Source: Horticoccus luteus (GTDB lineage Bacteria; Verrucomicrobiota; Verrucomicrobiia; Opitutales; Opitutaceae). From it: DNA of 32,000 bases. Made by a program: the position numbers and the translations under genes. The number at the start of each line of letters is the position of its first letter. Within the stretch, counting starts at the first letter, position 1. The notes beneath the pieces were generated by a model. The model made no database searches, was not told where the DNA came from, and worked only from the letters and a program-made list of their open reading frames with translations. Shown here in pieces: positions 1 to 20,549 of this stretch. The stretch is taken from contig NZ_CP080507.1 of NCBI RefSeq assembly GCF_019464535.1, positions 4,110,001 to 4,142,000 on the forward strand, in the 5' to 3' direction.

Positions 1-85
1 GATGCACGAGCGAGTCGAGCCCCTCCGGCAGTTTTTCCAGGCGGCGCGTTTCCGTGCGCCGCACTTCTTCCATCGGCAGCGGCAT
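1..85 (-). CDS. hypothetical protein, N-terminal fragment (gene runs off the left edge)
   Basis: Reverse-strand ATG at 85 (plus-strand CAT 83-85), 3 nt after the stop of the upstream gene (plus-strand CTA 89-91). My translation MPLPMEEVRRTETRRLEKLPEGLDSLVH stays open to the window edge. Too short for the ORF track or for a functional call. The spacing suggests the same operon as the two genes upstream. Confidence 0.3.
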   Translation of the reverse strand, partial: MPLPMEEVRRTETRRLEKLPEGLDSLVH

Positions 86-88
86 CGG

Positions 89-2266
89 CTAAAGCTGGTA
101 GTGAGATTGCAACAACTGCCGGAAGTCCCGGCCCCATTGCACGAGCAGCGGCGACCACGGCAGATCGAAGCGGATCACGCCCGTTCGCCCGTGCCACACC
201 ACGTGGCCCTCTTTCGCCGCCGCCCCGGTCGGCGCCGGCACGCGCGCCACGACGAGAAAGAAAGGTTCGGCCGACCGCAGGCCGCGCGGATCGTCCATGC
301 GCACGCGCACCGCGCCACCCGTCGCCCAGCCCAACGCCGGCGAAGGCAGCACGTCCTGCCGGCCCGGCACCACGCGCCAGTCGGTCACGCGCAAATCCCG
401 CCCGGAAGAGCCTTGGAAACGCACCTCCGCGCCATGCAGGTGTCCGCCGAACAAATCGCCCGCGAAGTCCTGCGGCACGACCGCGTAAAAATCCCACAAC
501 GGCCCGTCGCCGACGAGCTCGCCCACCATCGTCCCGCGCGCCATCCACGTGCCCAGCATGTCATCGCTGTGGGCGGAAACCCATTCGCCCGTCACCGGCG
601 CGCGAAAATCCAGTTGCTCCTGATCGTGCTCGAGCTGCGCCAGCAACATCTCCACCGATTCGCGCCGCTTCTTCATCGGTGCAATCCCCGCAGCCAATTC
701 CGTCAGCATCTGCCGCTCCCGCGCGGCCGCTTGTTCCAGATTTGCGCGCGCCGACGCGATCGACAGCGCCAGTTCAGGGTTCTGCAACGTGACCAACGGC
801 GCGCCTTGCTGTACGCTGGTTCCGCTGGGCACCGCAAAGGATTCCGCCCAGCCGTCGACCGGCGTGAGCACTGTCATCGAGCCCGCGGCCCGCACCACCC
901 CCGCTGCACGAAAATGCCGCGGAAACGGCACCACCCCCAACAAAATCACAATGACCGCGAGGGCGCCGAACGTCACACCCCACGCCCGTTTGCGCACCCG
1001 CTGGATGCGCGGCTCCCGCGTCAGGTAACGCAGCCCGCCGACGACCGGCATCACAAACGCACCGATGAACGTCACCACACCCGCGAGCAGCCCGATGCCG
1101 AAGTAGCGATCCGCCACGAGCAGGATGATCGAGACCGTGATGAGAATGCGATAAACCCAGCTCGCCACGCCGTAAATCGACAGCCACACCGCTTCCTTCC
1201 GGCTGCGCGCCGGGCTCTCGGTGAATTTGCCGCCAAACGCATATTTCTCGATCATGTGCAGCCACTGGCGCGCCGCCCGCGGCTGCAAATTCGGCGAGTC
1301 GGTCAGATCCGCGAGAATATAATAGCCGTCAAAGCGCAGCAGCGGATTGATATTGAAAATCACCGTGGAGACCGACGCCACGATCATGACGTTATACGCG
1401 AGACTGTTGAGCAGCCCGGCGCCGGTGTTGGCCCAGACGAGCGCCGCGATGCTCGCGAAAAACAACTCCGGGATCATGCCCGCGCAGCCCACCATCACGC
1501 GTTTCCACCGCTCGCGAAAGGCCCAGGCGGCCGTCGCGTCCACATACGGAATCGGCGTGAACACCAGCAGGGTCACACCCATCGCGTGCACCTCGCCCCC
1601 GAATTTTTTCACCGCAAACGCGTGACCGAATTCGTGCACCAGCTTCGCCATCGCGAAGCCGAGATACAACAGGAGGAGGTTGCCCGGTTCGAGAATGCTC
1701 TGCGTCTGGTCCTGCGCCTGATCCCAGTGGTTGATGACCGCCGACAGCCCCAGCCCCACCATCACGATCCACAGCAACCCCGCGCCCGGCGTGCAAAGCC
1801 ATTTCACCACCGGCCACAAGCGCCGCAGAATCGGCTCCGGATCGAGCAGGCGGATACGCAAAAAGAAGATGCCGAAAATCTGTGACTTGATCTCCTGCTG
1901 CACCCGCTTCTGGTGCCGTTGAAACAATTGCGCCGTGTCCGCCGGCACATCCGACGCGATCAGGTTGGATTGATACAACTGCGCCAGCATCGAGACGATC
2001 TCGCCCTGGCCCGGCGCGCGGTCGCCATCCCGCTCGAGACAGCCGACCCAGATTTCCTCGATCGTGCGCGTGCCGTCGAGGCGCGCCACAAACTGGTAGG
2101 CCTCCGGCCGGAAACGAAAAAACTGATTCGTGAAACCATCCTGTGCGATGTGCCACGTCTCGCCGCGAAACACCTGTTTCCGAATCGTCACCGACGGCCG
2201 CAGCCGCAGCCGCTGCCCGGCCACCCGATGCCACGACTCGCTGAATAACGCCCGCTGCTCGCTCAT
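89..2266 (-). CDS. fusion protein: PqqD/RRE-like N-terminal domain + peptidase M50 (site-2 protease family) membrane domain + C-terminal HlyD-type periplasmic adaptor domain (725 aa)
   Basis: ORF track 89..2266(-). The HEFGH zinc motif is encoded at 1622-1636 and the second S2P motif NINPLLRFDGYY at about 1328-1354. Several hydrophobic segments are present (e.g. GLLWIVMVGLGLSAVI, GVTLLVFTPIPY, WGVTFGALAVIVILLGVVPF). After the last TM comes a barrel-sandwich/coiled-coil pattern (VLTPVDGWAESFAVPSGTSVQQGAPLVTL ... LEQAAARERQMLTELA ... LDFRAPVTGEWV) typical of HlyD-family MFPs. The N-terminal about 110 aa resembles PqqD (FVARLDGTRTIEEIW...GEIVSMLAQLYQSNLI). Confidence 0.85.
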   Translation of the reverse strand: MSEQRALFSESWHRVAGQRLRLRPSVTIRKQVFRGETWHIAQDGFTNQFFRFRPEAYQFVARLDGTRTIEEIWVGCLERDGDRAPGQGEIVSMLAQLYQSNLIASDVPADTAQLFQRHQKRVQQEIKSQIFGIFFLRIRLLDPEPILRRLWPVVKWLCTPGAGLLWIVMVGLGLSAVINHWDQAQDQTQSILEPGNLLLLYLGFAMAKLVHEFGHAFAVKKFGGEVHAMGVTLLVFTPIPYVDATAAWAFRERWKRVMVGCAGMIPELFFASIAALVWANTGAGLLNSLAYNVMIVASVSTVIFNINPLLRFDGYYILADLTDSPNLQPRAARQWLHMIEKYAFGGKFTESPARSRKEAVWLSIYGVASWVYRILITVSIILLVADRYFGIGLLAGVVTFIGAFVMPVVGGLRYLTREPRIQRVRKRAWGVTFGALAVIVILLGVVPFPRHFRAAGVVRAAGSMTVLTPVDGWAESFAVPSGTSVQQGAPLVTLQNPELALSIASARANLEQAAARERQMLTELAAGIAPMKKRRESVEMLLAQLEHDQEQLDFRAPVTGEWVSAHSDDMLGTWMARGTMVGELVGDGPLWDFYAVVPQDFAGDLFGGHLHGAEVRFQGSSGRDLRVTDWRVVPGRQDVLPSPALGWATGGAVRVRMDDPRGLRSAEPFFLVVARVPAPTGAAAKEGHVVWHGRTGVIRFDLPWSPLLVQWGRDFRQLLQSHYQL

Positions 2267-2276
2267 GGTCGTGCGC

Positions 2277-4109
2277 TCACCACCACAGCTTGAGCCGCAG
2301 GAAATCGACCAACCGGTGCGTCGCCATCCACAGCAGACTGCGGTGGCCGGCCTCGATCTTGGCCACGCCGCTCATCCCCGGCCGGAACCAGTCCGCCCGA
2401 TGGTCCAGCAGCCCATGCACGAGAAAGAAATTTCCATCCCGGTCCGGCATCGCCGACGGCTCGATGCGATCGATCGTCACCTTGAACGTGTCCTCAGGCC
2501 GGCTCGCAAACGCGATGTCCGCCGTGTGGCTGTTCTGGATCTGGTCGATGTCTTTTTCCACCACCCGCATCTCGACGTAGAGCCCCTTCAGTTGGGAAAC
2601 CTTCAGCAGGATGTCGCCGGTCTTCACCGGCGCGCCGATTTTTTCGCGCAAATCGCCTTCGACGACCACGCCGTCAAACGGCGCCCGCATTTCCGCCCGC
2701 GAAAGCCGGTAACGCACCAGGTCAACCCGCGCCTGCGATTCCGCCTGCTGCGCCCGCGCCACGCGCAACTCCGAAAGCTGCCGGTCCGCCTCCGCCTTGT
2801 CGGCTTCGCTCGCGTGCCTCTGCAACTCCGCCTGCGCCGCCGCGAGCTGCACCAGGAGGTCGCTCGTATCCAGTTTCACCAGCACATCGCCCTGCTTCAC
2901 CAGATCACCCGGCCGCACATCGACTTCCGCGAGATAACCTTCGAAGGGCGCCGGCAGATGCAGCAGCGCGTCAGCCCGCACGATGAACGTACCGTCGACG
3001 CGATACGGGAACGGCACGAACACCGCGATCGCGAGCAACACCGCCCCGGCGATCGCGCCCACTTTGATCCACGTCTGTTTCGGCCCGAGAAAGCCTGCGC
3101 ACCACGTGCGAAAGGCCACCGCCCAGCGCGCCCCAAACCACCGGTCCTGCTTCCGCAATTCATCGAGACGCCGCGACACTTGGTCCGCGATCACCCGCAA
3201 CGCCAGCGCATCATATTCGCCAAAAGCCGTCTCGCTGCGCTCGAGCGTCAACACACCCCGCGCCTCGCCTTCCACGCGCACCGGCACCGACAACAAAAAC
3301 GGCACGCGCTCCGCCTCCGCGTAAGCGGCATGATCGCGGGTGATCGCCGTGCTCTCGCTCAGCGCCGGCCAGACGATCTCCTCATCCTGATCGCGCGCTT
3401 CCTCCATGGCCGCCTCCAATCGCTGCACGATCGTCATGCGCTTCTCGAAACGGTCCGTGCCGCTGATCGCCTGCACCCGCACGTAGGCGCCGTCCGTCCA
3501 GCCCAACGCCACCCGCGTCGAGTGGAAACGCGCCGCCAGTTCGTTCACCAGCGACATCGCCACCGCGAGGAAACGCGTATGCGCATTTGTCGCCGCCAAA
3601 ATTTCCAGCGCCTGCGCAAAGTGCTCCACCTCGCGCTTCGTCTTCTCCAGCAACCGCTGCCGCTGATAAAGCAACGGCGTATCCGACGCGAGCCGCAGCA
3701 GCGAACCCGCCGCGACGATCTCGTCGCGCGACGTCCGCGCCAGCGCCACCGCCAGTAAACACGTTTCACCGCCGTCGCCCGTGGACAGCGTCACCAACAG
3801 CAATCCCAACCCGCCGGTCGCATTCGTCGCCGCCGCCGCCAGCCCCTCGGCGAGCGCGCGTTCCGCCAGCGGTCCAAACACCGGACCCGCCAAAGGCAGC
3901 GGAAACTCCCGCGCCGTCGGCCAGCCCGCGGCCAGTCGCCACCCCTCGCCCACGCGCACCACGACAGCCGCCGCGGGCGCCTGCACCAGTTCCGCACAAG
4001 TCTGCGCAAAACGAGGCCAGAATTCCTTGGGGGACCCTTCAAACAGGCGGCACGCTTCGAGCCGGGCCACGGCTTCGGCAGGGGTCGCAAACGGGGAAGT
4101 GTTGTTCAT
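2277..4109 (-). CDS. tandem GAF-like cytoplasmic sensor domains + single TM + HlyD-family periplasmic adaptor (610 aa)
   Basis: ORF track 2277..4109(-). A GAF-like region lies at about aa 160-320 (FLAVAMSLVNELAARFHSTRVALGW...VPVRVEGEARGVLTLERS) and a weaker GAF-like region at the N-terminus. TM segment IKVGAIAGAVLLAIAVFVPF. This is followed by an MFP pattern (APFEGYLAEVDVRPGDLVKQGDVLVKLD, a long coiled coil, MRAPFDGVVVEGDL, LYVEMRVVEKDI). The stop is 10 nt before the start of the M50 fusion gene. Confidence 0.85.
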   Translation of the reverse strand: MNNTSPFATPAEAVARLEACRLFEGSPKEFWPRFAQTCAELVQAPAAAVVVRVGEGWRLAAGWPTAREFPLPLAGPVFGPLAERALAEGLAAAATNATGGLGLLLVTLSTGDGGETCLLAVALARTSRDEIVAAGSLLRLASDTPLLYQRQRLLEKTKREVEHFAQALEILAATNAHTRFLAVAMSLVNELAARFHSTRVALGWTDGAYVRVQAISGTDRFEKRMTIVQRLEAAMEEARDQDEEIVWPALSESTAITRDHAAYAEAERVPFLLSVPVRVEGEARGVLTLERSETAFGEYDALALRVIADQVSRRLDELRKQDRWFGARWAVAFRTWCAGFLGPKQTWIKVGAIAGAVLLAIAVFVPFPYRVDGTFIVRADALLHLPAPFEGYLAEVDVRPGDLVKQGDVLVKLDTSDLLVQLAAAQAELQRHASEADKAEADRQLSELRVARAQQAESQARVDLVRYRLSRAEMRAPFDGVVVEGDLREKIGAPVKTGDILLKVSQLKGLYVEMRVVEKDIDQIQNSHTADIAFASRPEDTFKVTIDRIEPSAMPDRDGNFFLVHGLLDHRADWFRPGMSGVAKIEAGHRSLLWMATHRLVDFLRLKLWW

Positions 4110-4359
4110 GCGTCCAGGGCATCACGACGCGGGCTCCAGCGGGCTACCCGGCGTGTGAAGGGTAAATGTCATCGCGCCGTTTCGCCGTTTTCCAAGCAAA
4201 AATGCGCGATTCCCCGATGGCGGAACGGCCAGACGCCACTCCATGACCGACTTGCCGAACGATAAATTTTCCAAATCTCCGCCCCTCGGATAATTTCGCG
4301 CTGCGACTGGAATGCCGTTGCCACGAGCCCGGGGCGCGCTCATGCCTCACTGCACGTTC
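4110..4359. promoter_or_regulatory. divergent intergenic/promoter region between the GAF-MFP operon (-) and the lipoprotein/ABC operon (+)
   Basis: A 250-bp non-coding gap between two divergently oriented start codons. It contains the most AT-rich stretches of the first 11 kb (e.g. gataaattttccaaatctcc, ccaagcaaaaatgcg). No specific -35/-10 elements could be assigned by eye. Confidence 0.4.
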
Positions 4360-4782
4360 ATGAGCTTCCCGCTTCTTAAATTGCCCGTGCGCTGCGCCCT
4401 CCTTCCCCTCGCTTTCGTGCTCACAATGTTTGTCGCCGCCTGTGGTGGCGGTGGCGGCGGCGGCGGCACACCGCCCACTCCGCCTCCTCCCGTTCCTGAT
4501 CTCGCTCCCGCCTCGATCGCCAATCACACGATCGTGATTGCCGATCCCGACCAACCCACGGTCACGAGCACCTACGCTTTCAGCGCGTCCACTTACACTT
4601 CCCCCGGCGGCGATAGCGGCACCTACAGCTACGGCAAGGTTGCCGGCACGACGACGCAGGCTCAGCTGCAAATCGCTTCGACGTTCAACCCCGTGCGCAC
4701 TTACACGCTCACGTTCACGTCCTCCGCCGGCGGCACCTACGTTGACCAAGTTGGCAAGCACGGCACGTTCCAGTATCAGTAA
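4360..4782 (+). CDS. small secreted lipoprotein with poly-Gly/Pro linker and about 100-aa Thr/Ser/Tyr-rich beta-type domain (140 aa)
   Basis: In-frame ATG at 4360 within ORF 4312..4782 gives MSFPLLKLPVRCALLPLAFVLTMFVAAC with a good lipobox (VAAC). Next come G8, TPPTPPPPVP and a globular-looking C-terminus. No family recognised. Confidence 0.7.
   Translation: MSFPLLKLPVRCALLPLAFVLTMFVAACGGGGGGGGTPPTPPPPVPDLAPASIANHTIVIADPDQPTVTSTYAFSASTYTSPGGDSGTYSYGKVAGTTTQAQLQIASTFNPVRTYTLTFTSSAGGTYVDQVGKHGTFQYQ
4444..4467 (+). repeat. in-frame (GGY)8 trinucleotide tract, with (GGC)5 perfect at 4453-4467, encoding Gly8 right after the lipidated Cys
   Basis: Read directly from the sequence: tgt ggt ggc ggt ggc ggc ggc ggc ggc aca. 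Confidence 0.9.
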
Positions 4783-6058
4783 ACGCGCGCGCCTCGCGCT
4801 CGCCCTGCTGCTGGCCCTTCCCGTCTCCGGCTGCCTCTCCGTCCGGCGCGAACTCGCGCTCGAACAAACCCGCCAGCACGTGGCGTGGGCCGCCCTCGCC
4901 ACTCCGCCCCGCCGTGAAACCCGCACGTTTTCCTGGGCCGGGGCACTCGCGCAACTCCGCGCCGCCAACCCCAAGATTCGCTCCGCCGAGCTCGATCTGA
5001 TCCGCGCCCGGGAAGCGCGCGAGCAAGTTCGCCGCTCGCTGATTCCCCTCGTGAGCTTGCAAAGCGGATACAACCGCAGCTTCGGCGGCAGCTCCCTCAA
5101 CACCTTCGATCCGTTCTACTTTGCCGCCACCGTCTTCTTCGACGTGCCCGGCTTCATGAACTACCGCACGCGCGCGGAAGCCGCCGAACTCACGCTCACC
5201 CGCGCCGAACTCGGCCGCGAAGCCGTCTGGCGCGAACAGGTCACCTCCCTCTACCGCGCCGCCGCCGCCCAGGAAGATCTCGCCGCCCAACTCGCCCGCC
5301 TGCAACGCCAGCAAGCCCGCGCCCGCGCTCTCGCCCCCGGCGCACCCCGCGCCGCCACCGCCGCCCAGCGCCGCCTCCTCCCGGCCCAAACCCGCCTCGA
5401 CGCCCAACTCGCCGACGCCCGTGAAAAAGTCGCCGATCTTCTCGGCCTGCCTGGCACTCCCATCGTCTTTTCCGGGCCGCTCCCCGACCCCGGCTACGAT
5501 CGCGTGGCCCAACGCCCCGCTCCCGCCCAACTCGCCGGCCTGCCCCTCCGCCTTGCCGCCATCGAACTCGTGGCCTTGCGCGCGCGCCAGCTCGGCGTGC
5601 GCCTGCAGGCCTGGCCCGAAGTAAATTTTTCGGTCAGCACCCCCACGCTCTATCGCCGCACCAATGGCCAGAGCGACTACTGGTCTTCCCACGACACCCT
5701 CGCCGGGGCCAACGCCTTTTGGACGCTCGATACCCGGGGCCGGCAGGCCAGCGAGGGCCGCATCCTCACCGCCGAACTCGCCCTGCGCCGCACCATCCTG
5801 GAGCAGGAAGCTCACCGCGTCGCCGCGCAACTCCACACCGCGCTGGACCAGCTCCAGGTGACCGATCGCGAGTTCGCCGCGCTCAACGCCGCCCTGCCCG
5901 ACGCCCCGGAGCGCCTTCGACCCGACCTCCTCGCGCGCCGTGATGCGCTCGCCGCCGAACGCCGCGAATGGGAAGTGGTGTTGTGGTTTTTCGACGACAC
6001 CCGCTGGACCACCCCCGCTCCCCCGACCACCGTCGCGCTCGCCGCCTCCTCCCGATGA
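4751..6058 (+). CDS. TolC-like outer membrane efflux lipoprotein (OMF), Ala/Arg/Leu-rich and divergent
   Basis: Frame of ORF 4538..6058. I prefer the TTG at 4751 (or 4742), which gives MASTARSSISKRARLALALLLALPVSGC with a lipobox (VSGC). Two OEP-like repeats are visible (AELDLIRAREAREQVRRSLIPLVSLQSGY... and LRLAAIELVALRARQLGVRLQAWPEVNFSV...). The stop overlaps the next start (ATGA at 6055-6058). The start codon is uncertain. Confidence 0.65.
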   Translation: MASTARSSISKRARLALALLLALPVSGCLSVRRELALEQTRQHVAWAALATPPRRETRTFSWAGALAQLRAANPKIRSAELDLIRAREAREQVRRSLIPLVSLQSGYNRSFGGSSLNTFDPFYFAATVFFDVPGFMNYRTRAEAAELTLTRAELGREAVWREQVTSLYRAAAAQEDLAAQLARLQRQQARARALAPGAPRAATAAQRRLLPAQTRLDAQLADAREKVADLLGLPGTPIVFSGPLPDPGYDRVAQRPAPAQLAGLPLRLAAIELVALRARQLGVRLQAWPEVNFSVSTPTLYRRTNGQSDYWSSHDTLAGANAFWTLDTRGRQASEGRILTAELALRRTILEQEAHRVAAQLHTALDQLQVTDREFAALNAALPDAPERLRPDLLARRDALAAERREWEVVLWFFDDTRWTTPAPPTTVALAASSR

Positions 6059-7224
6059 CTCCGCCCCTCTTCCGCGCCGCAGCCATCGCCCTGCTCCTCA
6101 CCGGCGCCGGTTGCACTCGCCCACCCGCGTCGACCCGCCCACCCACCCCCGCCGCCTGGCAATGGCAGGACTTCCCCTCCGCCCAAGAGCTGCTCCTCGC
6201 CGAATTACCCGCCGGCGTGCAACCCGTCCGCCTCGACGTCGTTCACGCGCCGGTGGCCGGTGAACTCATGCTCCTGCCTCCTGCCGCCAACGACGCCACC
6301 CTCCCGGCCAACGCCGCGTGGGCGCGCATCACGATCCCCGGCGCCGCCGACGAAGCGCGCGATCTCGCGGACATGCGCCAGCGCCTCACCGAGCGGCGCG
6401 ATCACTATGCCCGCTTCGAGGTGCCCGCCGCCCTCGCCCGCCTCGACCGCGAAATTGCCGACGCCCAGGAAACCCTTTCGGTCGCCCGCTTCGCCCAGAA
6501 ATCGCCCGACCTCTTCCGCGGCGAAGACGCGCCGCTCGATCCGCAACTGCAGCCTTCGCTCTCACCCGCCCAAGCTGAGGCTCAGCTCCAACGCCTCCGC
6601 GAGCAGCGCGCCCAACTCGCCGCCGGCGATCGTGCTGCCGAACCCGCCGACCTGCTCGCGCTCCAAGCCCAGCTCGACCAACGCGACCGCGCGCTCCGCC
6701 TCCGCGATGAACAATTGACGCTCACCGCGCCGTTCGCCGCGCGCCTCCGCCTCGCGCAACCCGGCGCCTCGCGCCACGTCGAACCCGGCGAAATCATCGC
6801 CACGCTTTCCGATTCTTCCGCCCTCGAAGTGCGCGTCCGCGCGACGCTGCCGCTCCTCCACAGCGTGCCGCCGGAAACACTTCAGGCCGTCGTCACCCTC
6901 CCCGGCGGCATCACCGCGCCGGCGGAATTTGCCGGTAGCACGGTCGAACTGCAGGGGCCCGTCCTCGTCACCATCTTTCGCTTTCAACTAGCCGCCACCC
7001 CGGCGCAGGCCACCGCGGTTCCGACCGCCGGCGTGGAGTTGCCTGTGCTCGTGTTTGCCCGCTTGCCGCACGCCGCCCGCATCGTCCCGAAACTTGCCCT
7101 CGTGCGCTTCGATGCGCACGGCGTCCTGCGCGATGGCTGGCGCGCCGGCCTGCCGCGCTTGCTGCCCGGCACGGAACTGCTCGCCGAAGGCCGCCAGGCG
7201 CTCGCGTTGCAACCCGCGCCCTGA
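6055..7224 (+). CDS. HlyD-family periplasmic adaptor (MFP), probable lipoprotein
   Basis: ATG at 6055 inside ORF 5968..7224 gives MTPPLFRAAAIALLLTGAGC (signal peptide plus Cys). A long coiled-coil region follows (EIADAQETLSVARF...AEAQLQRLREQRAQLAA...LDQRDRALRLRDEQLTLTAPFAARL) and then a beta-barrel-like tail (VEPGEIIATLSDSSALEVRVRATLP). It is translationally coupled to the preceding OMF gene. Confidence 0.7.
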   Translation: MTPPLFRAAAIALLLTGAGCTRPPASTRPPTPAAWQWQDFPSAQELLLAELPAGVQPVRLDVVHAPVAGELMLLPPAANDATLPANAAWARITIPGAADEARDLADMRQRLTERRDHYARFEVPAALARLDREIADAQETLSVARFAQKSPDLFRGEDAPLDPQLQPSLSPAQAEAQLQRLREQRAQLAAGDRAAEPADLLALQAQLDQRDRALRLRDEQLTLTAPFAARLRLAQPGASRHVEPGEIIATLSDSSALEVRVRATLPLLHSVPPETLQAVVTLPGGITAPAEFAGSTVELQGPVLVTIFRFQLAATPAQATAVPTAGVELPVLVFARLPHAARIVPKLALVRFDAHGVLRDGWRAGLPRLLPGTELLAEGRQALALQPAP

Positions 7225-7236
7225 AGTCCGCGCCCG

Positions 7237-7875
7237 ATGTTATTCGCGCTGCGCCACGTTACGTTTGCCTACCGGCGCGGGGCCGCGCCCGTGCTTCACG
7301 ACTTTTCCCAAGACTTCCCCGCCGGCCTCACGATCCTGCGCGGCCCTTCCGGCGGCGGTAAAAGCACCCTGCTGAAATTGCTCGCCGGTTACCTCGCGCC
7401 CGCTGCCGGCACTGTGACCACCCGTCACGGCCGCGCCCCCGACGCCGCTTTCCAGCGCCACGACGTCGGCTTCGTTTTTCAACAGTTCAACCTGCTGCCC
7501 GGCGTCTCGCTGCAACGGAATCTCGAACTCGCCGGCTTGATCGGCGGCGTGCCGCCCGCCGTCCTCGCCGCCCGCGTGCAACACTGGCTCGACCGGATGG
7601 GCTTGCAGCCGTGGTCCGCCACTCGCGTCGAACAGCTGTCCGGCGGGCAGATCCAGCGCGCCGCCCTCGCCCGCGCGCTTGTCAAAGCGCCCGCCGTCCT
7701 CCTCCTCGATGAACCCACGTCCGGTCTCGACGATACCAATACGGCGCTCATCGCGGCGCTCGCGCGCGACTGGCTGGCCGCCGGAAATTCTGTCATCGTC
7801 TCCACTCACGATCCCCGCCTCCCGGCGACGCTCGGCGATGCGACGGCGTTGACCCTCGAACTCCCCGCCGCATGA
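7237..7875 (+). CDS. ABC transporter ATP-binding protein (FtsE/LolD/MacB-type NBD, 212 aa)
   Basis: Walker A GPSGGGKST (7342-7368), Q-loop region FVFQQFNLL, signature LSGGQIQR, Walker B LLLDEPTSGLD, H-loop VSTHD. Confidence 0.9.
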   Translation: MLFALRHVTFAYRRGAAPVLHDFSQDFPAGLTILRGPSGGGKSTLLKLLAGYLAPAAGTVTTRHGRAPDAAFQRHDVGFVFQQFNLLPGVSLQRNLELAGLIGGVPPAVLAARVQHWLDRMGLQPWSATRVEQLSGGQIQRAALARALVKAPAVLLLDEPTSGLDDTNTALIAALARDWLAAGNSVIVSTHDPRLPATLGDATALTLELPAA

Positions 7876-8987
7876 ACGCCACCCCGGCTGTCCTGCGTTA
7901 CCTCGCGCACGAATTGACCACGCGCTGGCGGGCGCAACCCATCTCGCCCTTCGCCCGCTGGCTGCTGACCCTCGTGCTCACCGCAGCCGCCGGAGTTTTC
8001 CTCGCCGGTTTCGCGGCGGCGGAAATGGCCCGCCGCGCGCAGTTGCAACACCTCGGCCTCGACACGCTTGTCGTGCGCGTCCCCGCCCGCTCCGCGCTGG
8101 GCGAAGCGGCGCCGTGGCCGGCCGACAGTTGGGCCGCGCCCCTGAGCCACGAAGGCGAACTCACGTGGCTCCAGCAACTGCCACAGCCTGCGTTCAACCC
8201 TTGGGACCGGCCGCTGCCGGCCTTCGCCGCCGCGTTGCCGACACTCGCCGCCCTCCTCCCGGCGGAAGCACCCGCCGGCCGCGCCGTCTGGTTCACGCGC
8301 AGCCTGCCCGCGGGGCGCGACGTGCGGCTCACGTTCCATAACGTCCCGCTCGTCGCGCGCACCGTCCAGCCCGCCGCGCGCTGGCAGGCCTTGGGCCTCG
8401 ATGAATTCGTCCTCCTGCCGCCCCCCGCGGGCGATGTCACGGGCCGGTTGGACGTCATGCTCTTCACGCCCGACGCCGGCCATTCGCTCGCCGACACCGC
8501 CGCACTCGTGGCTGGATTTTTCACCGCAGAAAACGAACCTCCGCCCGCCGTCCAGGATCCCTCTCCCTACCGCCGGGCGCTCGACGAGCTCGTCGCCCGA
8601 CAGGTGCAGTGGCGCCGCGGCATGCTCGTCGCGCTCGCCGGCTGTATCGCCGCGATGTTTGGGTGTATCGGATTGCTGGAGGAGCGGCAGACGCGCTACG
8701 CCCAGGCGTTGCTGCGCAGTCTGGGCGTTGGCCGCGGTTTGCTGTGGGCCAGCGCGTGGGTCGAAAACCTCCTCCTCGCCAACACAGCGCTGCTCTGCGG
8801 CATCTGGTTGAGCGGCACGCTCGCCGCCCGGCTGCTGGCGGGCGTGAATGTTATCAGCCCAGACGTCATGCCGTTAGCTCCGGCCCAATGGCTCTGGCTT
8901 GCCATCGGTGTAAATACCGGTGTTCTCGCCAGTATTTTTCCCCTGGGTCGGGCACTGCGCCGGCCCGTCGGGCAAGTCCTCCCTTAA
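7872..8987 (+). CDS. ABC transporter permease, FtsX/MacB-type (4 TM with large periplasmic loop)
   Basis: The ATG at 7872 overlaps the NBD stop (ATGA 7872-7875). TM1 is WLLTLVLTAAAGVFLAGFAAA, followed by an extracytoplasmic region of about 200 aa. The C-terminus has an FtsX-like three-TM bundle (MLVALAGCIAAMFGCIGLL...YAQALLRSLGVGRGLLWASAWVENLLLANTALL...WLWLAIGVNTGVLASIFP). Confidence 0.8.
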   Translation: MNATPAVLRYLAHELTTRWRAQPISPFARWLLTLVLTAAAGVFLAGFAAAEMARRAQLQHLGLDTLVVRVPARSALGEAAPWPADSWAAPLSHEGELTWLQQLPQPAFNPWDRPLPAFAAALPTLAALLPAEAPAGRAVWFTRSLPAGRDVRLTFHNVPLVARTVQPAARWQALGLDEFVLLPPPAGDVTGRLDVMLFTPDAGHSLADTAALVAGFFTAENEPPPAVQDPSPYRRALDELVARQVQWRRGMLVALAGCIAAMFGCIGLLEERQTRYAQALLRSLGVGRGLLWASAWVENLLLANTALLCGIWLSGTLAARLLAGVNVISPDVMPLAPAQWLWLAIGVNTGVLASIFPLGRALRRPVGQVLP

Positions 8988-8997
8988 ATTCTCGTTC

Positions 8998-10551
8998 ATG
9001 ACCAAGCTGCTCGTATCCATCAAACGCGCCGGACTCGCCCTAGTGGCCGGCGCGGTCACCCTTCCCGCCCTCGCGCAAACCGCGCCGTTGACCCTGCAGG
9101 ACCTGCTCGTTTCTGCGATCAACAACAATTTGGAATTGCGCGCCAAGCGCCTCGACCCCGAAGCCCAGCGTTACCGCCTCGCCGCCGCATGGGGCGATTT
9201 CGACCCCGCCTTCGTCGCCGGCAGCTACGTGCTCTCCTCCGAGCACCCGCAAAACTACCGCGATTTTCTTGCGACCGGCAGCTCCATCACGATCTACCAG
9301 GAAGAGATCATCCACTATGAAGCGGGCTTCACCGGCAAACTGCCCACCGGCGCCAACTACTCGTTGAACACGTTCGTCGAACGCAACGACAACAGCATCA
9401 ATCGCAAGGCCCCCGTCTTCAACGGCAACCTCACCAACCCCAGCGTCAGCGGCCCCGGCTTTCATCCGGAATACGCCGCCACCGCGGTGTTCTCCCTCAC
9501 GCAGCCCTTGCTCCGCGACTTCGGTCTCAACGCCAACCTCGCCGAAGTGCGCCTCAATAAAAGCGCCCTCGCCACCTCCGAGCAGGAAACGCGCGGCACC
9601 CTCCTGCGCATCATGGCCAACGTCGTCGGCGCCTACTACGAAATGGTCTTCGGCCAGGAAAACATCCGCGTGAAGGAACAGGCCGTCGAACTCGCGCAAA
9701 ACCTCGTGCGCGACAACAAGCGCCGCCTCGACGAGGGCAAAATGTCGCCCCTCGACGTCACGCAGGCCCAAGGCCGCCTCGCCGAAGCCCGCGAAGAACT
9801 TCTCCTCGCCCAAAATTTCCTCGCCCAACGCCGCAATACCTTGCGCGAACTCACCCGCGAAAATTTCGATTCCGAAGACGGTGACTGGACCGTCGACAAC
9901 ACCTTCCTCCGTCGCGATCTGCCCGAACTCGACCGCAATCGCCTTCTCCCGGCGATGTTCGAAAACAACCCCGTTTACCTCGCCAACGTCGAAGCGGCGC
10001 GCGCCAGCGACATCCGCCTCACCTACGCGAAAAATCAGCGCTGGCCCCGCGTCGACCTCAAGGCCTCCCTCAGCTACAACGGCCTCGCCGGCGACTGGAG
10101 CCCCGCCTACACCGACTTCGATCAACGCACCGGCCCGGATTGGAACGTCGGTTTCGTCGTCAACATCCCGCTCACCAACCGCGTCGGCCGCGCCCGCTAC
10201 TCCGAGGCGAAGACCCGCAAGATGCAGGCCCTCATCACCGTCAAGCGCACGGAAGTCCAGCTCCTCAGCGCCTTCGATTCGGCGATGCGCGACCTCGCCT
10301 CCGCCCGTGAACGCATGAAACTCGTGCGCGACTCCGTCACTCTGGCCGACTCCGCGCTCACCGCCGAAGAGAAGCGCCTGGCATCCGGCGTCACCACCAG
10401 TTACAACGTCGCCACCGCCCAGCGCGATATGAGCCAGGCGCATTCCCGCGAACTCGCCACGCTCGTCGATCTCAACAAAGCCTACGCCCAGCTCTACGCC
10501 CTCGTCGGCACGCTGCCCCAGCAGTTGAAAGTGGACGTGAAGTCGGAATAA
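8998..10551 (+). CDS. TolC-family outer membrane efflux protein (517 aa)
   Basis: ATG at 8998 inside ORF 8920..10551 gives MTKLLVSIKRAGLALVAGAVTLPALAQ (signal peptide). A canonical OEP start follows (LTLQDLLVSAINNNLELRAKRLDPEAQ). The protein has two OEP repeats with the usual coiled-coil heptads. Confidence 0.9.
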   Translation: MTKLLVSIKRAGLALVAGAVTLPALAQTAPLTLQDLLVSAINNNLELRAKRLDPEAQRYRLAAAWGDFDPAFVAGSYVLSSEHPQNYRDFLATGSSITIYQEEIIHYEAGFTGKLPTGANYSLNTFVERNDNSINRKAPVFNGNLTNPSVSGPGFHPEYAATAVFSLTQPLLRDFGLNANLAEVRLNKSALATSEQETRGTLLRIMANVVGAYYEMVFGQENIRVKEQAVELAQNLVRDNKRRLDEGKMSPLDVTQAQGRLAEAREELLLAQNFLAQRRNTLRELTRENFDSEDGDWTVDNTFLRRDLPELDRNRLLPAMFENNPVYLANVEAARASDIRLTYAKNQRWPRVDLKASLSYNGLAGDWSPAYTDFDQRTGPDWNVGFVVNIPLTNRVGRARYSEAKTRKMQALITVKRTEVQLLSAFDSAMRDLASARERMKLVRDSVTLADSALTAEEKRLASGVTTSYNVATAQRDMSQAHSRELATLVDLNKAYAQLYALVGTLPQQLKVDVKSE

Positions 10552-10565
10552 CGCGCTCCCTCCCC

Positions 10566-11291
10566 ATGAAAAGCCTCTGCCTCACCCTCTTGTTCGCCGC
10601 CGGCGCCGCGATCGTTTCCGCCGCGCCCAAGGCATTTGATGCCGTCATCCTTCCCTACAAGGAGGTGGTCGTCAGTTCCCCGGTCCAAAGCTCCATCACC
10701 GCCATCTTCGTGAAGGAAGGCGATGTCGTCACGCTCGGCCAGCCGCTCGCCCAACTCTACAACAAGATGGAGGAGCTCGATATGAACCGCACCAAAGCGG
10801 CGCTCGAAAAGAAGGAATTCGACTTCAAAGGCTCCAAAAATCTCTACGCCGATAAGATCATCAGCGAAGACGAGGCGCTGAAAAACCGCATCGAACTCGA
10901 GCTCGCCAAACTGCAATTCGACATGGCGTCCGAAGTGCACCATCAGCGCGAAATCGTCGCCCCGATCGCCGGCATCGTCGTCGAGAAACTCCGCGAAGTC
11001 GGTGAGGCCGTGCAGGCCTCGCAACCGATGTTCCGCCTCGTCGACATCAGCCGCGTCTACGTGCAATTCTACGTGCGCGCCGAAGATCTCGCCGCCCTCA
11101 AAGTCGGCGATGAAATGGACGTCCGCTGCCCCGTCGTCGATCCCACCGGCACGTTCGTCGGCAAAGTGGATTTCATCGACCCGCGCGTCGATGCCGCCAG
11201 CGGCCTCATGCGCGTGAAAGTGATTCTGCCCAACGCCGACGGCCGCATCAAAGCCGGTCTGCGCGCCGAAGTTTCCCGCCACGCGGAGTAA
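10566..11291 (+). CDS. short periplasmic adaptor (HlyD/RND-MFP family, 241 aa), cleavable signal peptide and no membrane anchor
   Basis: Signal peptide MKSLCLTLLFAAGAAIVSA/AP. Lipoyl-like half-motifs (SSITAIFVKEGDVVTLGQPLAQL ... IVAPIAGIVVEKLREVGEAV). A short alpha-hairpin. Beta-barrel segment (VYVQFYVRAEDLAALKVGDEMDVR ... MRVKVILPNADGRIKAGLRAEV). Confidence 0.8.
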   Translation: MKSLCLTLLFAAGAAIVSAAPKAFDAVILPYKEVVVSSPVQSSITAIFVKEGDVVTLGQPLAQLYNKMEELDMNRTKAALEKKEFDFKGSKNLYADKIISEDEALKNRIELELAKLQFDMASEVHHQREIVAPIAGIVVEKLREVGEAVQASQPMFRLVDISRVYVQFYVRAEDLAALKVGDEMDVRCPVVDPTGTFVGKVDFIDPRVDAASGLMRVKVILPNADGRIKAGLRAEVSRHAE

Positions 11292-12542: not shown

Positions 12543-13412
12543 GTGCACGCTCGCGAACACCGCACCGCCCTCGGCCAGTTGCTCTTCGCCGCGCTCTGCT
12601 GGAGCCTCGGCGGTCTGCTGATCAAAGCCGTCGACTGGCCGCCTCTCGCCGTCGCCGGCGGCCGCGGCTTCATCGCGGCGGTGTTTCTCATCGTCACGAC
12701 ACGCGGGCGGCTCCGGTTCACCTGGTCGCCCGTGCAGCTCGGCGCCGCCGTTGCCTACGCGGGCTGCACCGCCACGTTCGTCCTCGCCACCAAACTCACC
12801 ACGGCCGCCAACGCCGTGCTGCTGCAATACACCGCGCCGGTGTGGGTCGCGCTGCTGGGCGCGTGGTTGTTGCACGAACGGCCCACGCGCGCCGATTTCT
12901 TCGCCATCCTCGCCGCCCTCGGTGGCATGGGTTTGTTTTTCGCCGACCGGCTCGATCTCACCAACCTGCTGGGCAACGCCGTCGGTATCTTCAGCGGCAT
13001 CTGCTTCGCCGTCATGGCCGTTCTCCTGCGCAAGCAAAAGGATGGCTCGCCCCTCGAGTCCATCATCCTCGGCAATCTGCTCGCCTGCGCGCTCGGCGTG
13101 CCCGCGATGCTCGGCGCGCCCCTGCCTTCCGCGACCGGCGCCGGCGCCTTGGTGTTGCTCGGCATCGTGCAACTCGGCGTTTCCTATCACTTTTACGCCC
13201 GCGCCATCCGCCACCTCACCGCGCTCGAAGCGGTGCTCGTTCCCGTGATCGAACCCATCCTCAATCCGCTGTGGGTTTTTCTCGTGCTCGGCGAACGTCC
13301 CGGCCACTTCGCTCTCGCCGGCGGCGCACTCGTCCTCCTCGCCGTCACGGCGCGCTCCTGGTGGTCCTTACGACCAACGCCCGCCCCTTCCCTCGCGCGC
13401 ACCACCGCCTGA
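12543..13412 (+). CDS. EamA/DMT-family transporter (10-TM type)
   Basis: ORF track 12543..13412 with a GTG start. The protein is hydrophobic throughout with two EamA-like halves (LLFAALCWSLGGLLIK...LLQYTAPVWVALLGAWLLHERP ; ...GIVQLGVSYHFYARAIRHLTALEAVLVPVIEPILNPLWVFLVLGERP). Confidence 0.85.
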   Translation: MHAREHRTALGQLLFAALCWSLGGLLIKAVDWPPLAVAGGRGFIAAVFLIVTTRGRLRFTWSPVQLGAAVAYAGCTATFVLATKLTTAANAVLLQYTAPVWVALLGAWLLHERPTRADFFAILAALGGMGLFFADRLDLTNLLGNAVGIFSGICFAVMAVLLRKQKDGSPLESIILGNLLACALGVPAMLGAPLPSATGAGALVLLGIVQLGVSYHFYARAIRHLTALEAVLVPVIEPILNPLWVFLVLGERPGHFALAGGALVLLAVTARSWWSLRPTPAPSLARTTA

Positions 13413-13433
13413 GCTCTCGCCGTCGCCGCACCG

Positions 13434-14405
13434 TCAAGCGTGCCGCAATGGCGGCCGCAACTGGATCAGCACATTCGCCGCCGTAATCAATCCGCCGCCC
13501 ACCAGAAGGTTCATCGTGAGCGATTCATTCGCGTAAGCGATCGCCGCCGCCGCCGAAATCAATCCCGGCACGAATAACGCCATTGCGGACCCGAAAATCG
13601 GTTCCACGCAGTAGATCAAGCCGGCCTCGGTCGCACTGATTTTCGGCTGCCACGCATTCATCAACCAATACGCCACCACGGTGCAAAACACCGTGAGGAT
13701 CAGGATGAGCGCCACCCACGCCGGCGACGTCCACATGGTGCCCAGCGCCGCCCAGTCCGGCATGGTCAGCAACGTGAGTCCGCCGAACACCACCGCCTGG
13801 GTCGCGAACATGATCAAGGTGAGATTCAGTGCCCGGTTGGCGGCAAACGCCGGCTTCTCCAGCCACAGAATCTGGCCCATGAAAAAGACCGACGCCAGCA
13901 ACGTCTCCCACTCGCCACGCCCGAGGTGCGCCGCCCGCCAGTCGAACCGCCCAAGAATCGCCACACCCGCCAGCACGAGCCCGCAACTCAGCCACACCAC
14001 CGGACCGGGCGCGCGCCGCGACCGCAACGCCACATAAATCGGAATGAGGATCGCGTAGAGTTGCGTTAAAAACGCGGAGGTCGATGCGGCGGTGAATTGG
14101 AGCCCGTCGTTTTGAAACAGCATGCCCGCGGCGGAAAACAGCCCGATCACCACGCCCTGCGTCCACTCCGCGCGGGTGGAGTGGAAAAACGTCCGCGGCC
14201 GGAATAGTAATATCAAAATGACGCCCAATAGAAAACGCGGCGCCACCACATTCACCGTATAAAACCAGGAGCCCGCCAGCGGCACGAGTCGCTCCTGCAC
14301 CAGCACGACGCCTTTGATGACGGGAAAACTCAGCCCCCAGAAAAAATTGGCGCAAAGGAGCATGAGCAGCGCCCGGGAACGATGCAGGGAGGCGGTGGCC
14401 GTCAT
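13434..14405 (-). CDS. EamA/DMT-family transporter
   Basis: ORF 13434..14432(-). I prefer the ATG at 14405 (MTATASLHRSRALLMLLCANFFWGLSFPVIK) over the GTG at 14432. It has two EamA halves and is convergent with the preceding EamA gene across a 21-bp gap. Confidence 0.8.
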   Translation of the reverse strand: MTATASLHRSRALLMLLCANFFWGLSFPVIKGVVLVQERLVPLAGSWFYTVNVVAPRFLLGVILILLFRPRTFFHSTRAEWTQGVVIGLFSAAGMLFQNDGLQFTAASTSAFLTQLYAILIPIYVALRSRRAPGPVVWLSCGLVLAGVAILGRFDWRAAHLGRGEWETLLASVFFMGQILWLEKPAFAANRALNLTLIMFATQAVVFGGLTLLTMPDWAALGTMWTSPAWVALILILTVFCTVVAYWLMNAWQPKISATEAGLIYCVEPIFGSAMALFVPGLISAAAAIAYANESLTMNLLVGGGLITAANVLIQLRPPLRHA

Positions 14406-14479
14406 GAAAGCCCGCCAGCGTAGGTCGGCCACCCGGGGCGCGCCAAGCGAATTGGCGGCGCCCGCCGGAACGCCGGCAC

Positions 14480-14507
14480 AAAAAAGCCGCCGAGCAAAGT
14501 CGGCGGC
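14480..14507 (-). terminator. rho-independent terminator after the SWIB gene
   Basis: On the minus strand: GCCGCCGA, loop ctttgc, TCGGCGGC, then TTTTTT. On the plus strand this is the A-run at 14480-14485 and the stem at 14486-14507. It lies 26 nt downstream of the SWIB stop codon. Confidence 0.75.
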
Positions 14508-14532
14508 TTGGATAAATGCGTTGAACTGCGTC

Positions 14533-14808
14533 TTACTTCGTAACGTGGCCGGAGACCAACTTGGTCATCTCGAACATCGAAACCGACTTCTTGTTGTTGA
14601 AGATCGGCTTCAACTTGTCGTCGGCGTTGATCTGGGTCTTCACCTTCTTGTCCTGCAGACCGTTCTTCTTGATATAAGCCCAGAGCTTCTTCGTCAGCTC
14701 CGTGCGGGGGAGGGGGCTCGCGCCCACGACGGCCGCGAGAGCGGCATCGGGCGTGACCGGTTTCATGAACGCAGCGTTAGGTTTACGGGCGGGTGCTTTT
14801 TTAGCCAT
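14533..14808 (-). CDS. SWIB/MDM2-domain protein (91 aa)
   Basis: ATG at 14808 inside ORF 14533..14850 gives MAKKAPARKPNAAFMKPVTPDAALAAVVGASPLPRTELTKKLWAYIKKNGLQDKKVKTQINADDKLKPIFNNKKSVSMFEMTKLVSGHV. This is the classic SWIB signature (R-T-E-x-x-K-K-L-W-x-Y-I-K...L-Q-D...F-E-M-x-K-L). GC content is locally low. Confidence 0.85.
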   Translation of the reverse strand: MAKKAPARKPNAAFMKPVTPDAALAAVVGASPLPRTELTKKLWAYIKKNGLQDKKVKTQINADDKLKPIFNNKKSVSMFEMTKLVSGHVTK

Positions 14809-14895
14809 AGTGTGGAGGATTGTGGGTGCTCTACTTTGAGAGCAAGGCACTTCTAGAGGGAAAACGGCCTCTTTGCCTAGGAGAAAAGCGCGGAT

Positions 14896-18641: not shown

Positions 18642-18805
18642 GGTGAGGGTTCAAGCTATGAGCGCACTGCGACGGCGCACGCTGAAAGTTGATTTGTTTC
18701 CCGCCGGCTCCCGCCGCCTCCACCGAAAAGCCGCTCGCCACCGCCACTGATCGCCCTTGTCTGTTCCCGTCGCTCCTGCGTCATCTTCGCCGCTCTTCTG
18801 TCCGC

Positions 18806-19948: not shown

Positions 19949-20035
19949 GCCGGGCCGCACCCGCCACCGGCGTTGCCGCCACTGAAGCGCGCCAGGCGGC
20001 TTTCCAGGGATCCGCTCAACCCGGGCGGCGCCTGC

Positions 20036-20485
20036 CTAGCGGCTTTCTTCCGAACCCTTTTCGAGCAGGCCCTTGGTCAGAAACACCAGGCCGCCCATTT
20101 GCGTCCACTCGGAAAGGAGGTTGCCAACCACTTGGCCCCATTTGCCGCCCGGCTGCATTTTCATAAAGAGCACGAGCCAGCCCACACCGGTCGCGGCGAT
20201 GGTCAGCAACAGCGAGTGGCGCCACACGAAATCACGCAGTGGATTTCTACGGCGACCTCGCACCGGTCGGCTGTCCGCCGAGTGGGCTTCCAACAAATAT
20301 TTTGTCCCGAGGATGATGACGACGGAGCCGCTCCAGTCAGCGACCGCATTGCCGAAGAAGGCGCCCCAATGCGTGTCGGGATTGGACCGGGTGTAGAGGA
20401 GAATCCAGAGCGCGAGTATCGCCAGCGTGACAAGGCTCAGAGAATGCTGATGAAAAAAACCTTTCGATTTCTTCCGTTTAGCCAT
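20036..20485 (-). CDS. small 4-TM membrane protein with internal duplication (149 aa), function unknown
   Basis: ATG at 20485 inside ORF 20036..20806 gives MAKRKKSKGFFHQHSLSLVTLAILALWILLY.... Two related halves are visible: HWGAFFGNAVADWSGSVVIILGTKYLLEAHS and KWGQVVGNLLSEWTQMGGLVFLTKGLLEKGS. It starts 64 bp downstream of the arnD stop on the same strand. Confidence 0.6.
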   Translation of the reverse strand: MAKRKKSKGFFHQHSLSLVTLAILALWILLYTRSNPDTHWGAFFGNAVADWSGSVVIILGTKYLLEAHSADSRPVRGRRRNPLRDFVWRHSLLLTIAATGVGWLVLFMKMQPGGKWGQVVGNLLSEWTQMGGLVFLTKGLLEKGSEESR

Positions 20486-20549
20486 GCCGACACAGACGCG
20501 CGACGGCGTTGAAAGTTCGACCACCCGGGGTGTTCCTGGACCGCGCCCC

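Follow-up and report, generated by a model that had tools for sequence, protein, structure and literature searches.

How might a protein be cut and exported by an operon that encodes a protease and two periplasmic adaptors, and in which no transporter gene had been recognized? This question is raised by one end of a 32,000-nucleotide stretch of the Horticoccus luteus chromosome (contig NZ_CP080507.1, positions 4,110,001 to 4,142,000; hereafter, the window). Two adjacent genes there encode inner-membrane proteins that both end in a membrane fusion protein (MFP) module. In one, the module follows cytoplasmic GAF-like modules (GAF-MFP); in the other, it follows a membrane domain resembling M50 metalloproteases (M50-MFP). 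A first-pass annotation had proposed that the protease sits alone where a pump would normally be. Here, we find that the operon continues past the window edge into a gene for a SecA-like ATPase, and that the system is reciprocally associated, across genomes, with genes for large and giant proteins carrying an N-terminal LEPR-XLL motif, which are likely its cargo. The observation made in the earlier annotation was confirmed, and its interpretation is supported in part.

The open reading frame (ORF) list and a reading of the junction (TGA-GCGCACGACC-ATG) bore out both annotated genes, with a spacer of 10 nt between GAF-MFP and M50-MFP. The next junction, TAG-CCG-ATG, bore out a further gene that starts at position 85, only 3 nt past the M50-MFP gene. 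The three genes are probably co-transcribed; a scan of window positions 1-4900 for promoter-like and terminator-like sites returned counts at chance level. The part of the third gene inside the window translates to 28 codons, MPLPMEEVRRTETRRLEKLPEGLDSLVH, which can be aligned with the N-terminal ends of the proteins encoded after M50-MFP in relatives. Logan contig L204, which is 100% identical to window positions 1-300 and extends 494 nt beyond the window, lengthens the third gene to 193 aa and includes the SecA Walker A motif MATGEGKT. This 193-aa stretch shares 52% identity (E=5e-60) with a 668-aa SecA-like protein of Actomonas aquatica, an orthologue that matches SecA_DEAD (2.9e-83), SecA_PP_bind (5.9e-26), and P-loop_SecA (3.4e-51). 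The scaffold/wing domain SecA_SW was not found in the Actomonas orthologue, the window organism's own copy having been read for its first 193 aa. The orthologue also scores under all cutoffs for SecA and SecA2 (TIGR00963, 550.7 against 800; TIGR03714, 434.6 against 930; TIGR04221, 392.4 against 725). These matches identify the third gene as encoding a truncated SecA paralogue without the scaffold/wing domain, the predicted ATPase of the operon itself. The SecA-like proteins also share a conserved N-terminal extension of ~35 residues (…EVRRTE…LPxGLDxLVHRAHG…) ahead of SecA_DEAD, seen at window 1-85 (-), L204:3299-3400, and L002:12221-12320; it may be a docking element for membrane partners.

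We compared 80 loci from Verrucomicrobiota, Desulfobacterota, Nitrospirota, Planctomycetota, Lentisphaerota, and the alpha-, beta-, and gamma-proteobacteria, using as denominators those loci with enough flanking DNA. A GAF-MFP gene lies directly upstream of the M50-MFP gene in 66 of 67 loci, and a SecA-like gene lies directly downstream in 59 of 62; one of the three misses (L053) is an artefact of an 8-nt overlap. Adjacency on this scale makes the energizing component a fixed part of the system. The co-occurrence that the first-pass annotation had proposed as a check was also found: within 10 kb, the pair is accompanied by a short MFP in 36 of 41 loci and by a TolC-family channel (OEP) in 28 of 41, and by an ABC/RND (ATP-binding cassette or resistance-nodulation-division) pump, in the form of ABC genes resembling the window's, in 2 of 41. 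The OEP and short MFP genes directly flank the GAF-MFP gene in the close relatives L002, L004, L006, and L008. When the non-core flanking ORFs of all 80 loci were clustered, no other partner family appeared in more than 8 loci. The family is large, with at least 2922 and at least 7387 clusters at 90% identity in two word-indexed searches and 4186 clusters at 50% identity in an exhaustive search (E<=1e-30); relatives occur in at least 484 GTDB species genomes, a lower bound that corresponds to <1% of species. Candidate carriers include Methylobacterium extorquens AM1 (META1p2399-2402) and, among cultured Opitutaceae, Actomonas aquatica.

Gene order varies among these loci. In the Verrucomicrobiota and Desulfobacterota (L007-L066), the OEP and short MFP genes lie upstream of GAF-MFP. 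In Nitrospira and the Proteobacteria (L060, L067, L069, L070, L073, L075, and L078-L081), the short MFP gene comes after the SecA-like gene and is at times duplicated; most of those loci had no detected OEP. Two loci depart further from the pattern: at L022:10001-12175, an M50-MFP homologue has no GAF-MFP, SecA-like, MFP, or OEP gene within 10 kb, and at L074:10001-12994, GAF-MFP, M50-MFP, and short MFP genes are present with no SecA-like gene. At L023:12967-15201, the SecA-like match is split in two (12967-13752 and 14092-15201), which may reflect a frameshift, an insertion, or an assembly problem.

Because its third gene encodes a SecA-like ATPase, the operon is not pumpless. The earlier proposal was that the M50 domain alone replaces the pump, that its product diffuses out through an MFP/TolC conduit, and that the GAF protein serves as a ligand-dependent gate. 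It drew on the lack of any ABC, RND, or MFS (major facilitator superfamily) gene inside the operon or conserved nearby, on the intact protease site, and on the MFP folds of both proteins. All of these hold, but with the SecA-like gene 3 nt past the protease gene here and adjacent in nearly all relatives, we consider this proposal very unlikely. Cleavage and export through an MFP/TolC conduit remains the best reading of the locus; the absence of a pump does not. The annotation had also allowed that an ABC or RND transporter starting at 85 would make the system an ordinary one, and the SecA-like ATPase found there instead makes it more unusual.

An ABC transporter does lie close by in the window. 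Between the divergent start of the operon and the OEP and short MFP genes that we assign to the system stands a five-gene module encoding a 156-aa protein without a family match, a 406-aa OEP-like protein, a 418-aa protein with a weak HlyD_3 match, an ABC ATPase, and a weakly matching FtsX-like permease; it appears co-directional with the system's OEP and short MFP genes. GAF-MFP and M50-MFP could then be ordinary accessory adaptors of this MacB-like pump, or of some other efflux pump, their M50 and GAF parts being incidental, and ABC ATPase, FtsX-like permease, OEP-like, and MFP-like genes do lie between operon and OEP in both the window and L001. However, the SecA-like gene is nearly universal, and the module, which occurs in just 2 of 41 loci, brings OEP-like and MFP-like genes of its own, so that such a role is hardly credible. 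The module, which is also found in L001 and L026 and is absent from most relatives, appears to be a MacB-like exporter inserted in a lineage-specific way.

If the system has its own motor, what does it move? Many loci have a very long ORF after the SecA-like or short MFP gene, often with >2000 aa visible before the locus ends; the giant gene of Actomonas is called at 18,972 aa. These adjoining ORFs show no mutual sequence relation beyond an N-terminal element, giants from different clades cannot be aligned, and the first ~2600 aa of three of them (L006:9256-17202, L042:10757-18313, and L066:14257-22152) contain no Pfam domain at E<=0.001. The common element, located 6-125 residues past the upstream stop, begins with an Arg/Lys-rich stretch and continues with F-x-[LFV]-E-x-L-E-P-R-[LVI]-L-L-S-A-D. 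It is the NCBIfam LEPR-XLL domain (NF012209), which scores 23-27 bits in the relatives' ORFs against a cutoff of 17. A hidden Markov model (HMM) built on the motif draws a sharp line: 32 ORFs score E<1e-3, and the best of the remainder scores E=2.4.

The association holds in both directions. Starting from the system, an LEPR-XLL ORF is present in 25 of 50 loci with >=8 kb of flank, and of the 22 such ORFs located downstream in the same orientation, 16 open <=400 nt from the last core gene. For the reverse direction, a codon pattern for E-x-L-E-P-R-x-L-L-S-A, with Arg fixed as CGN, was scanned blindly over metagenome contigs. It returned 120 loci, 108 of which were confirmed by the HMM at ORF N-termini; 41 show >=1000 aa, the longest visible ORF reaching 4171 aa. 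A core gene of the system is found in 22 of the 84 LEPR-XLL loci with >=1 kb upstream (the SecA-like, M50-MFP, or GAF-MFP gene in 14 of those 22) and in 10 of 34 with >=4 kb upstream. Given a locus of ~10 kb whose detection in <1% of species is a lower bound, our rough, uncalculated estimate puts chance adjacency of LEPR-XLL genes and the system well below 1%. The system is thus reciprocally associated with LEPR-XLL genes for large and giant proteins. The sequence evidence suggests that these giant surface proteins are likely its cargo.

The modules recognized in complete LEPR-XLL proteins are of extracellular type (Big_9, cadherin-like, He_PIG, FG-GAP, fn3, Calx-beta, and CAP). At their N-termini, as we read the sequence logo, the charged motif replaces the uninterrupted hydrophobic core of a classical signal peptide. 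Small complete LEPR-XLL ORFs of ~110-280 aa also occur (L009, L094, L101, L132, and L138), and in L009 a 273-aa ORF (14294-15112) and one of >=1970 aa (15301-21210) follow the SecA-like gene in tandem. In loci without a nearby LEPR-XLL ORF, the downstream genes are unrelated and share no alternative N-terminal motif. The motif has surfaced before, in a passing mention of an ~8000-aa Vibrio protein and in a preprint on Chlorochromatium, which describes the LEPRxLL giants Cag_663 (36,806 aa) and Cag_665 (20,647 aa) of Chlorobium chlorochromatii. That preprint ascribes their export, C-terminus first, to a sap-like type 1 secretion system (T1SS), and its co-expression cluster for the two genes includes Cag_1676, a "recently acquired secA." In the searchable literature, we found no paper linking LEPR-XLL to the SecA-like/M50-MFP/GAF-MFP system.

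The M50-MFP protein offers a candidate for leader recognition and cleavage. The annotated HEFGH motif was confirmed in place, and the coordinates given earlier for NINPLLRFDG were correct within 3 nt. The claim of an intact site was likewise borne out. Residues H211, E212, H215, N305, N307, P308, L309, L310, F312, D313, and G314 are under selection, being invariant in 59 relatives with identities down to 32%, and both motifs fall within predicted helices of the AlphaFold2 (AF2) model. Pfam Peptidase_M50 (PF02163) matches at 23.1 bits (5.2e-5), under its gathering cutoff of 27.2, and matches 45 of the 59 relatives at E<=0.01. On sequence grounds, the protein is assigned to a divergent subfamily of Peptidase_M50 and is a putative protease. 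Its best NCBIfam match is daptide_HExxH (NF041824, MpaP), over residues 21-410 at 7.9e-53, with 179.9 bits against an equivalog cutoff of 300; YydH/LiaK (NF058609) matches at 5.6e-9, with 36 bits against 225. These matches indicate that M50-MFP is homologous to leader peptidases of ribosomally synthesized and post-translationally modified peptides (RiPPs) while lying outside the MpaP and YydH/LiaK equivalogs.

In the AF2 model of M50-MFP (59 sequences; predicted local distance difference test [pLDDT] score, 83.8), the N-terminal domain has four strands and then three helices; next come seven membrane helices and a C-terminus with lipoyl, hairpin, and barrel parts. The N-terminal domain is tentatively PqqD-like: Pfam PqqD (PF05402) is detected in 28 of the 59 relatives, and the sole match of this domain in a PDB profile search is PqqD 5SXY, a weak one (E=0.097). 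At the other end, HlyD_D23 matches weakly (0.0049), and the MFP module matches 4L8J at 3.6e-5 in the PDB profile search, which returned no solved M50 relative. A Foldseek search of the C-terminal 280 residues against the PDB returned MacA, MexA, and AcrA at 1e-11 to 1e-10 with a probability of 1.00.

Such homology brings to mind the maturation and export of RiPPs or other small peptides, with the M50 protein and its RiPP recognition element (RRE) trimming leaders as MpaP and YydH do and with the giant genes as bystanders. The best NCBIfam matches, the PqqD-like domain of relatives, and the small LEPR-XLL ORFs speak for such a pathway. Against it, the scores fall far under the equivalog cutoffs, no modifying enzyme or other family is conserved around the locus, the motor that is conserved is of the SecA type that moves proteins, and the recurrent neighbour is a large protein of extracellular type. 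We regard a peptide pathway of this kind as distinctly unlikely. The M50/site-2 protease (S2P) catalytic motifs could equally suggest regulated intramembrane proteolysis, in which the protease would cleave an anti-sigma factor or another membrane regulator. No sigma or anti-sigma gene is conserved nearby, however, and the MFP fusion and the linkage to OEP and SecA-like genes point to transport, which leaves regulated proteolysis extremely improbable.

The GAF-MFP protein is the more conventional adaptor by family score. It matches HlyD_D23 (2.4e-19) and HlyD_3 (5.7e-17) in Pfam and, as only one of the two proteins does, passes the TIGR01730 (RND_mfp) cutoff, with 97.7 bits against 94.9. The AF2 model (44 homologues; pLDDT, 85.2) shows two GAF-like modules, a transmembrane (TM) helix, a lipoyl domain, a 2x27-residue hairpin, and a beta-barrel. 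Pfam GAF matches the second module, residues 185-314 (4.5e-7; 30.9 bits, cutoff 22.4), and the first, residues 10-141, has no Pfam match; the description as a tandem GAF protein thus combines one Pfam match with the model topology of the first module. A Foldseek search against the PDB returned periplasmic adaptors only (TMexC, MacA, AcrA, and MexA) at ~1e-14. Together with the 1e-11 matches of M50-MFP, this bears out the MFP folds that the first-pass annotation had assigned to both C-termini.

We favour a model in which a T1SS-like conduit is driven by the SecA-like motor and the M50 protease removes the LEPR-XLL leader; transport and cleavage of this cargo are what we infer, and we hold the model with confidence slightly better than even. 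In the window, it would comprise the three-gene operon together with the divergently encoded TolC-family channel and short MFP as its partners, and the same grade applies to this assignment and the mechanism jointly. The three MFPs would form a periplasmic tube that docks with the OEP in the manner of type 1 secretion and tripartite efflux systems. The role of an ABC transporter, passage through the inner membrane, would fall to the seven-TM M50 domain, perhaps jointly with the membrane anchor of GAF-MFP. The preprotein cross-linking domain is retained in the SecA-like motor, which would bind unfolded cargo and push it N-terminus first. The cytoplasmic PqqD-like domain may recognize the LEPR-XLL leader much as RiPP recognition elements recognize leader peptides, and the M50 site might then cut off the leader during export, as the C39 peptidase of bacteriocin ABC exporters does. 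The cytoplasmic GAF modules would probably make activity responsive to the motor or to a small ligand.

Several observations weigh against this model. The SecA-like protein lacks the scaffold/wing region, which in canonical SecA carries the two-helix finger. We know of no M50 protein that acts as a protein-conducting channel. In M50-MFP of the window itself, PqqD (PF05402) stayed below threshold and was not detected. The 32-kb window contains no LEPR-XLL ORF, the downstream side on which relatives such as L002, L004, and L006-L008 carry one lying outside it, and among the 50 well-flanked loci, 25 lack an LEPR-XLL gene at distances up to 10 kb. Conversely, ~70-75% of LEPR-XLL genes are not beside the system, and these two facts together require that dispersed cargo genes be assumed. 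Finally, some LEPR-XLL proteins have C-terminal RTX (repeats-in-toxin) repeats, a hallmark of C-terminus-first, ABC-driven type 1 secretion. One of them is a complete 1574-aa protein beside a Nitrospira copy of the system (L067:2666-7387), with C-terminal RTX nonapeptides (HemolysinCabind, residues 1466-1500); its N-terminal motif and C-terminal RTX raise the question of which end exits first.

The RTX proteins bear most directly on a model without translocation, in which the adhesins are exported C-terminus first by an ABC-type T1SS and the complex holds, unfolds, or clips the LEPR-XLL end, comparable to LapG/LapD and LapA. Besides the RTX ends, the C-terminus-first export proposed for the Chlorochromatium giants accords with it, the GAF modules suggest second-messenger control, and an ABC/FtsX module adjoins the operon in the window. 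Even so, an OEP and three MFPs belonging to the system would make little sense unless it also had its own conduit, 39 of 41 loci have no ABC genes, and most visible LEPR-XLL ORFs show no RTX. We therefore consider a role confined to N-terminal handling or release unlikely.

A more general proposal, which we make tentatively and with confidence somewhat short of even, is that the locus represents a distinct and widespread class of Gram-negative secretion system, composed of a SecA-like motor, an RRE-M50-MFP, a GAF-MFP, a short MFP, and a TolC-family channel. In this class, the N-terminal LEPR-XLL leader would mark dedicated substrates that are threaded N-terminus first and cleaved on export. 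For the export of 5,000-37,000-residue proteins across two membranes, a long-standing puzzle, the literature we searched appeals to type 1 or type 2 systems of the ordinary kind or to export by the proteins themselves. If the proposal is correct, this would be a new secretion pathway of several thousand protein clusters in at least six phyla, and its substrates would include the largest known bacterial proteins, the two Chlorobium chlorochromatii giants. LEPR-XLL, so far an orphan NCBIfam domain, would be explained as a new secretion signal, and the M50/PqqD module as a leader peptidase borrowed from RiPP biosynthesis, that is, a RiPP-type recognition and cleavage module reused for protein secretion. 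Should the model fail, the pair would still be unusual, one MFP being fused to a protease and the other to GAF sensors.

Features of the window, with coordinates, strand, and the evidence for each assignment
Feature	Coordinates	Strand	Evidence
Third gene, predicted secondary SecA-like ATPase; 28 codons of the 5' end, remainder beyond the left window edge	1..85	(-)	
RRE (PqqD-like)-M50 putative metalloprotease-MFP fusion, 725 aa, 7 predicted TM helices	89..2266	(-)	
M50-MFP: periplasmic MFP module (lipoyl, 2x27-residue alpha-hairpin, beta-barrel), residues 447-725	92..928	(-)	
M50-MFP: polytopic M50/site-2-protease-like membrane domain, residues ~144-445	932..1837	(-)	NF041824; Peptidase_M50 in relatives; AF2
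M50-MFP: NINPLLRFDG, second S2P motif, residues 305-314, predicted third zinc ligand D313	1325..1354	(-)	
M50-MFP: HEFGH, predicted zinc-binding/catalytic motif, H211, E212, H215	1622..1636	(-)	
M50-MFP: cytoplasmic PqqD-like (RiPP-recognition-element-like) domain, residues ~18-105	1952..2215	(-)	
GAF-GAF-TM-MFP protein, 610 aa	2277..4109	(-)	ORF list; Pfam; NCBIfam; AF2; Foldseek
GAF-MFP: periplasmic MFP module, residues 366-610	2280..3014	(-)	HlyD_D23; TIGR01730; Foldseek
GAF-MFP: single TM helix, residues 346-364	3018..3074	(-)	AF2 helix; hydrophobic sequence
GAF-MFP: GAF domain, residues 185-314	3168..3557	(-)	Pfam GAF
GAF-MFP: first cytoplasmic GAF-like alpha/beta module, residues 10-141	3687..4082	(-)	AF2 secondary-structure pattern alone
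Five-gene MacB-like module	4312-8987	(+)	
TolC-family outer-membrane factor assigned to the system	8998..10551	(+)	Pfam OEP 6.3e-47; orthologues flank the GAF-MFP gene in relatives
Short secreted MFP, 241 aa, the system's third adaptor	10566..11291	(+)	HlyD_D23 4.7e-25; TIGR01730 126.9 bits
Half-size ABC exporter gene, 621 aa	14896-16761	(-)	ABC_membrane + ABC_tran
Half-size ABC exporter gene, 627 aa, overlapping the preceding	16758-18641	(-)	ABC_membrane + ABC_tran
PMT-family (dolichyl-phosphate-mannose-type) glycosyltransferase	25799-27487	(-)	
Alpha-L-rhamnosidase with F5/8 type C domain, 1088 aa	28161-31427	(-)	

Elsewhere in the window, the two overlapping half-size ABC genes form a typical heterodimeric exporter ~11 kb from the operon, and the glycosyltransferase and rhamnosidase genes are ordinary Opitutaceae-style carbohydrate genes. 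Long antisense ORFs run opposite the real genes (window 2..1885 (+), 2130..3758 (+), and many others); they reach 627 aa and are rich in Arg, Pro, and His. We rejected antisense ORFs such as 2..1885 (+) as genes and regard them as artefacts of the 65-70% G+C content, which also yields spurious ORFs of >1000 aa in several related loci.

The architecture itself has been seen before. Kamneva, Poudel, and Ward (PLoS One, 2015; PMC4452313) described the same four- or five-gene locus in silico, from the same phyla and including one Chlorobi species. Its genes encode one protein with GAF and HlyD domains, another with Peptidase_M50-like and HlyD domains, a secondary SecA_DEAD protein lacking scaffold/wing, and a short protein of HlyD/Biotin_lipoyl type, with an OEP added in some cases. 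In their proposal, SecA_DEAD supplies the ATPase, the M50 protein may form the pore, and GAF has a regulatory role; no substrate was named. The window, with its GAF+HlyD gene, weakly matching M50+HlyD gene, adjacent SecA_DEAD gene, short MFP, and OEP, is an Opitutaceae-type instance of this locus, a kind known since 2015. Our full-text literature searches found no later or experimental work on it; the first-pass statement that no characterized example exists thus stands for experiment and not for in silico description. New relative to the 2015 study are the LEPR-XLL association, the PqqD-like and RiPP-peptidase homology, the invariance of the active site, both MFP folds, and a wider distribution, so that an operon type noted in 2015 now has a testable candidate class of substrates and a candidate signal.

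Among characterized exporters, the classical T1SS HlyB-HlyD-TolC and the tripartite ABC efflux pump MacAB-TolC share with the system, as modelled here, an MFP tube and a TolC-family channel, MFPs anchored by an N-terminal TM segment, and large, repeat-rich extracellular substrates, some with RTX. They differ in that the system has no ABC transporter and a SecA-like motor instead, its candidate signal is N-terminal rather than C-terminal, and it has three distinct MFPs, of which two carry cytoplasmic or membrane modules as fusions. Peptidase-containing ABC transporters (PCATs), which export bacteriocins, would follow the same logic, a leader being recognized and cut by a protease borne on the exporter; theirs is a C39 cysteine peptidase coupled to an ABC nucleotide-binding domain and acting on small peptides, as opposed to the M50 and PqqD-like domains and SecA-like motor here. 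The daptide protease MpaP and YydH/LiaK are homologous to M50-MFP over residues 21-410, including the region before the first TM helix, and share HExxH and NxxPxxxxDG, but here a 280-residue MFP module is fused on, the partner is SecA-like, and RiPP tailoring genes are absent.

Two further comparisons concern the motor. The Gram-positive SecA2/SecY2 systems, which export very large serine-rich adhesins, likewise place a dedicated SecA paralogue gene beside genes for very large surface proteins. They use SecY2, Asp proteins, and a full-length SecA2, whereas the system described here has no SecY paralogue and a truncated SecA-like protein, and would span the outer membrane through its MFPs and OEP. 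West-Roberts et al. (bioRxiv 2023, 10.1101/2023.11.21.568195) reported giant proteins of Omnitrophota and Actinobacteria with embedded divergent SecA_DEAD domains. There, too, a SecA-like motor without scaffold/wing is linked to giant proteins, but it lies inside the giant polypeptide, whereas here it is a separate protein, of 668 aa in Actomonas, encoded in an MFP operon.

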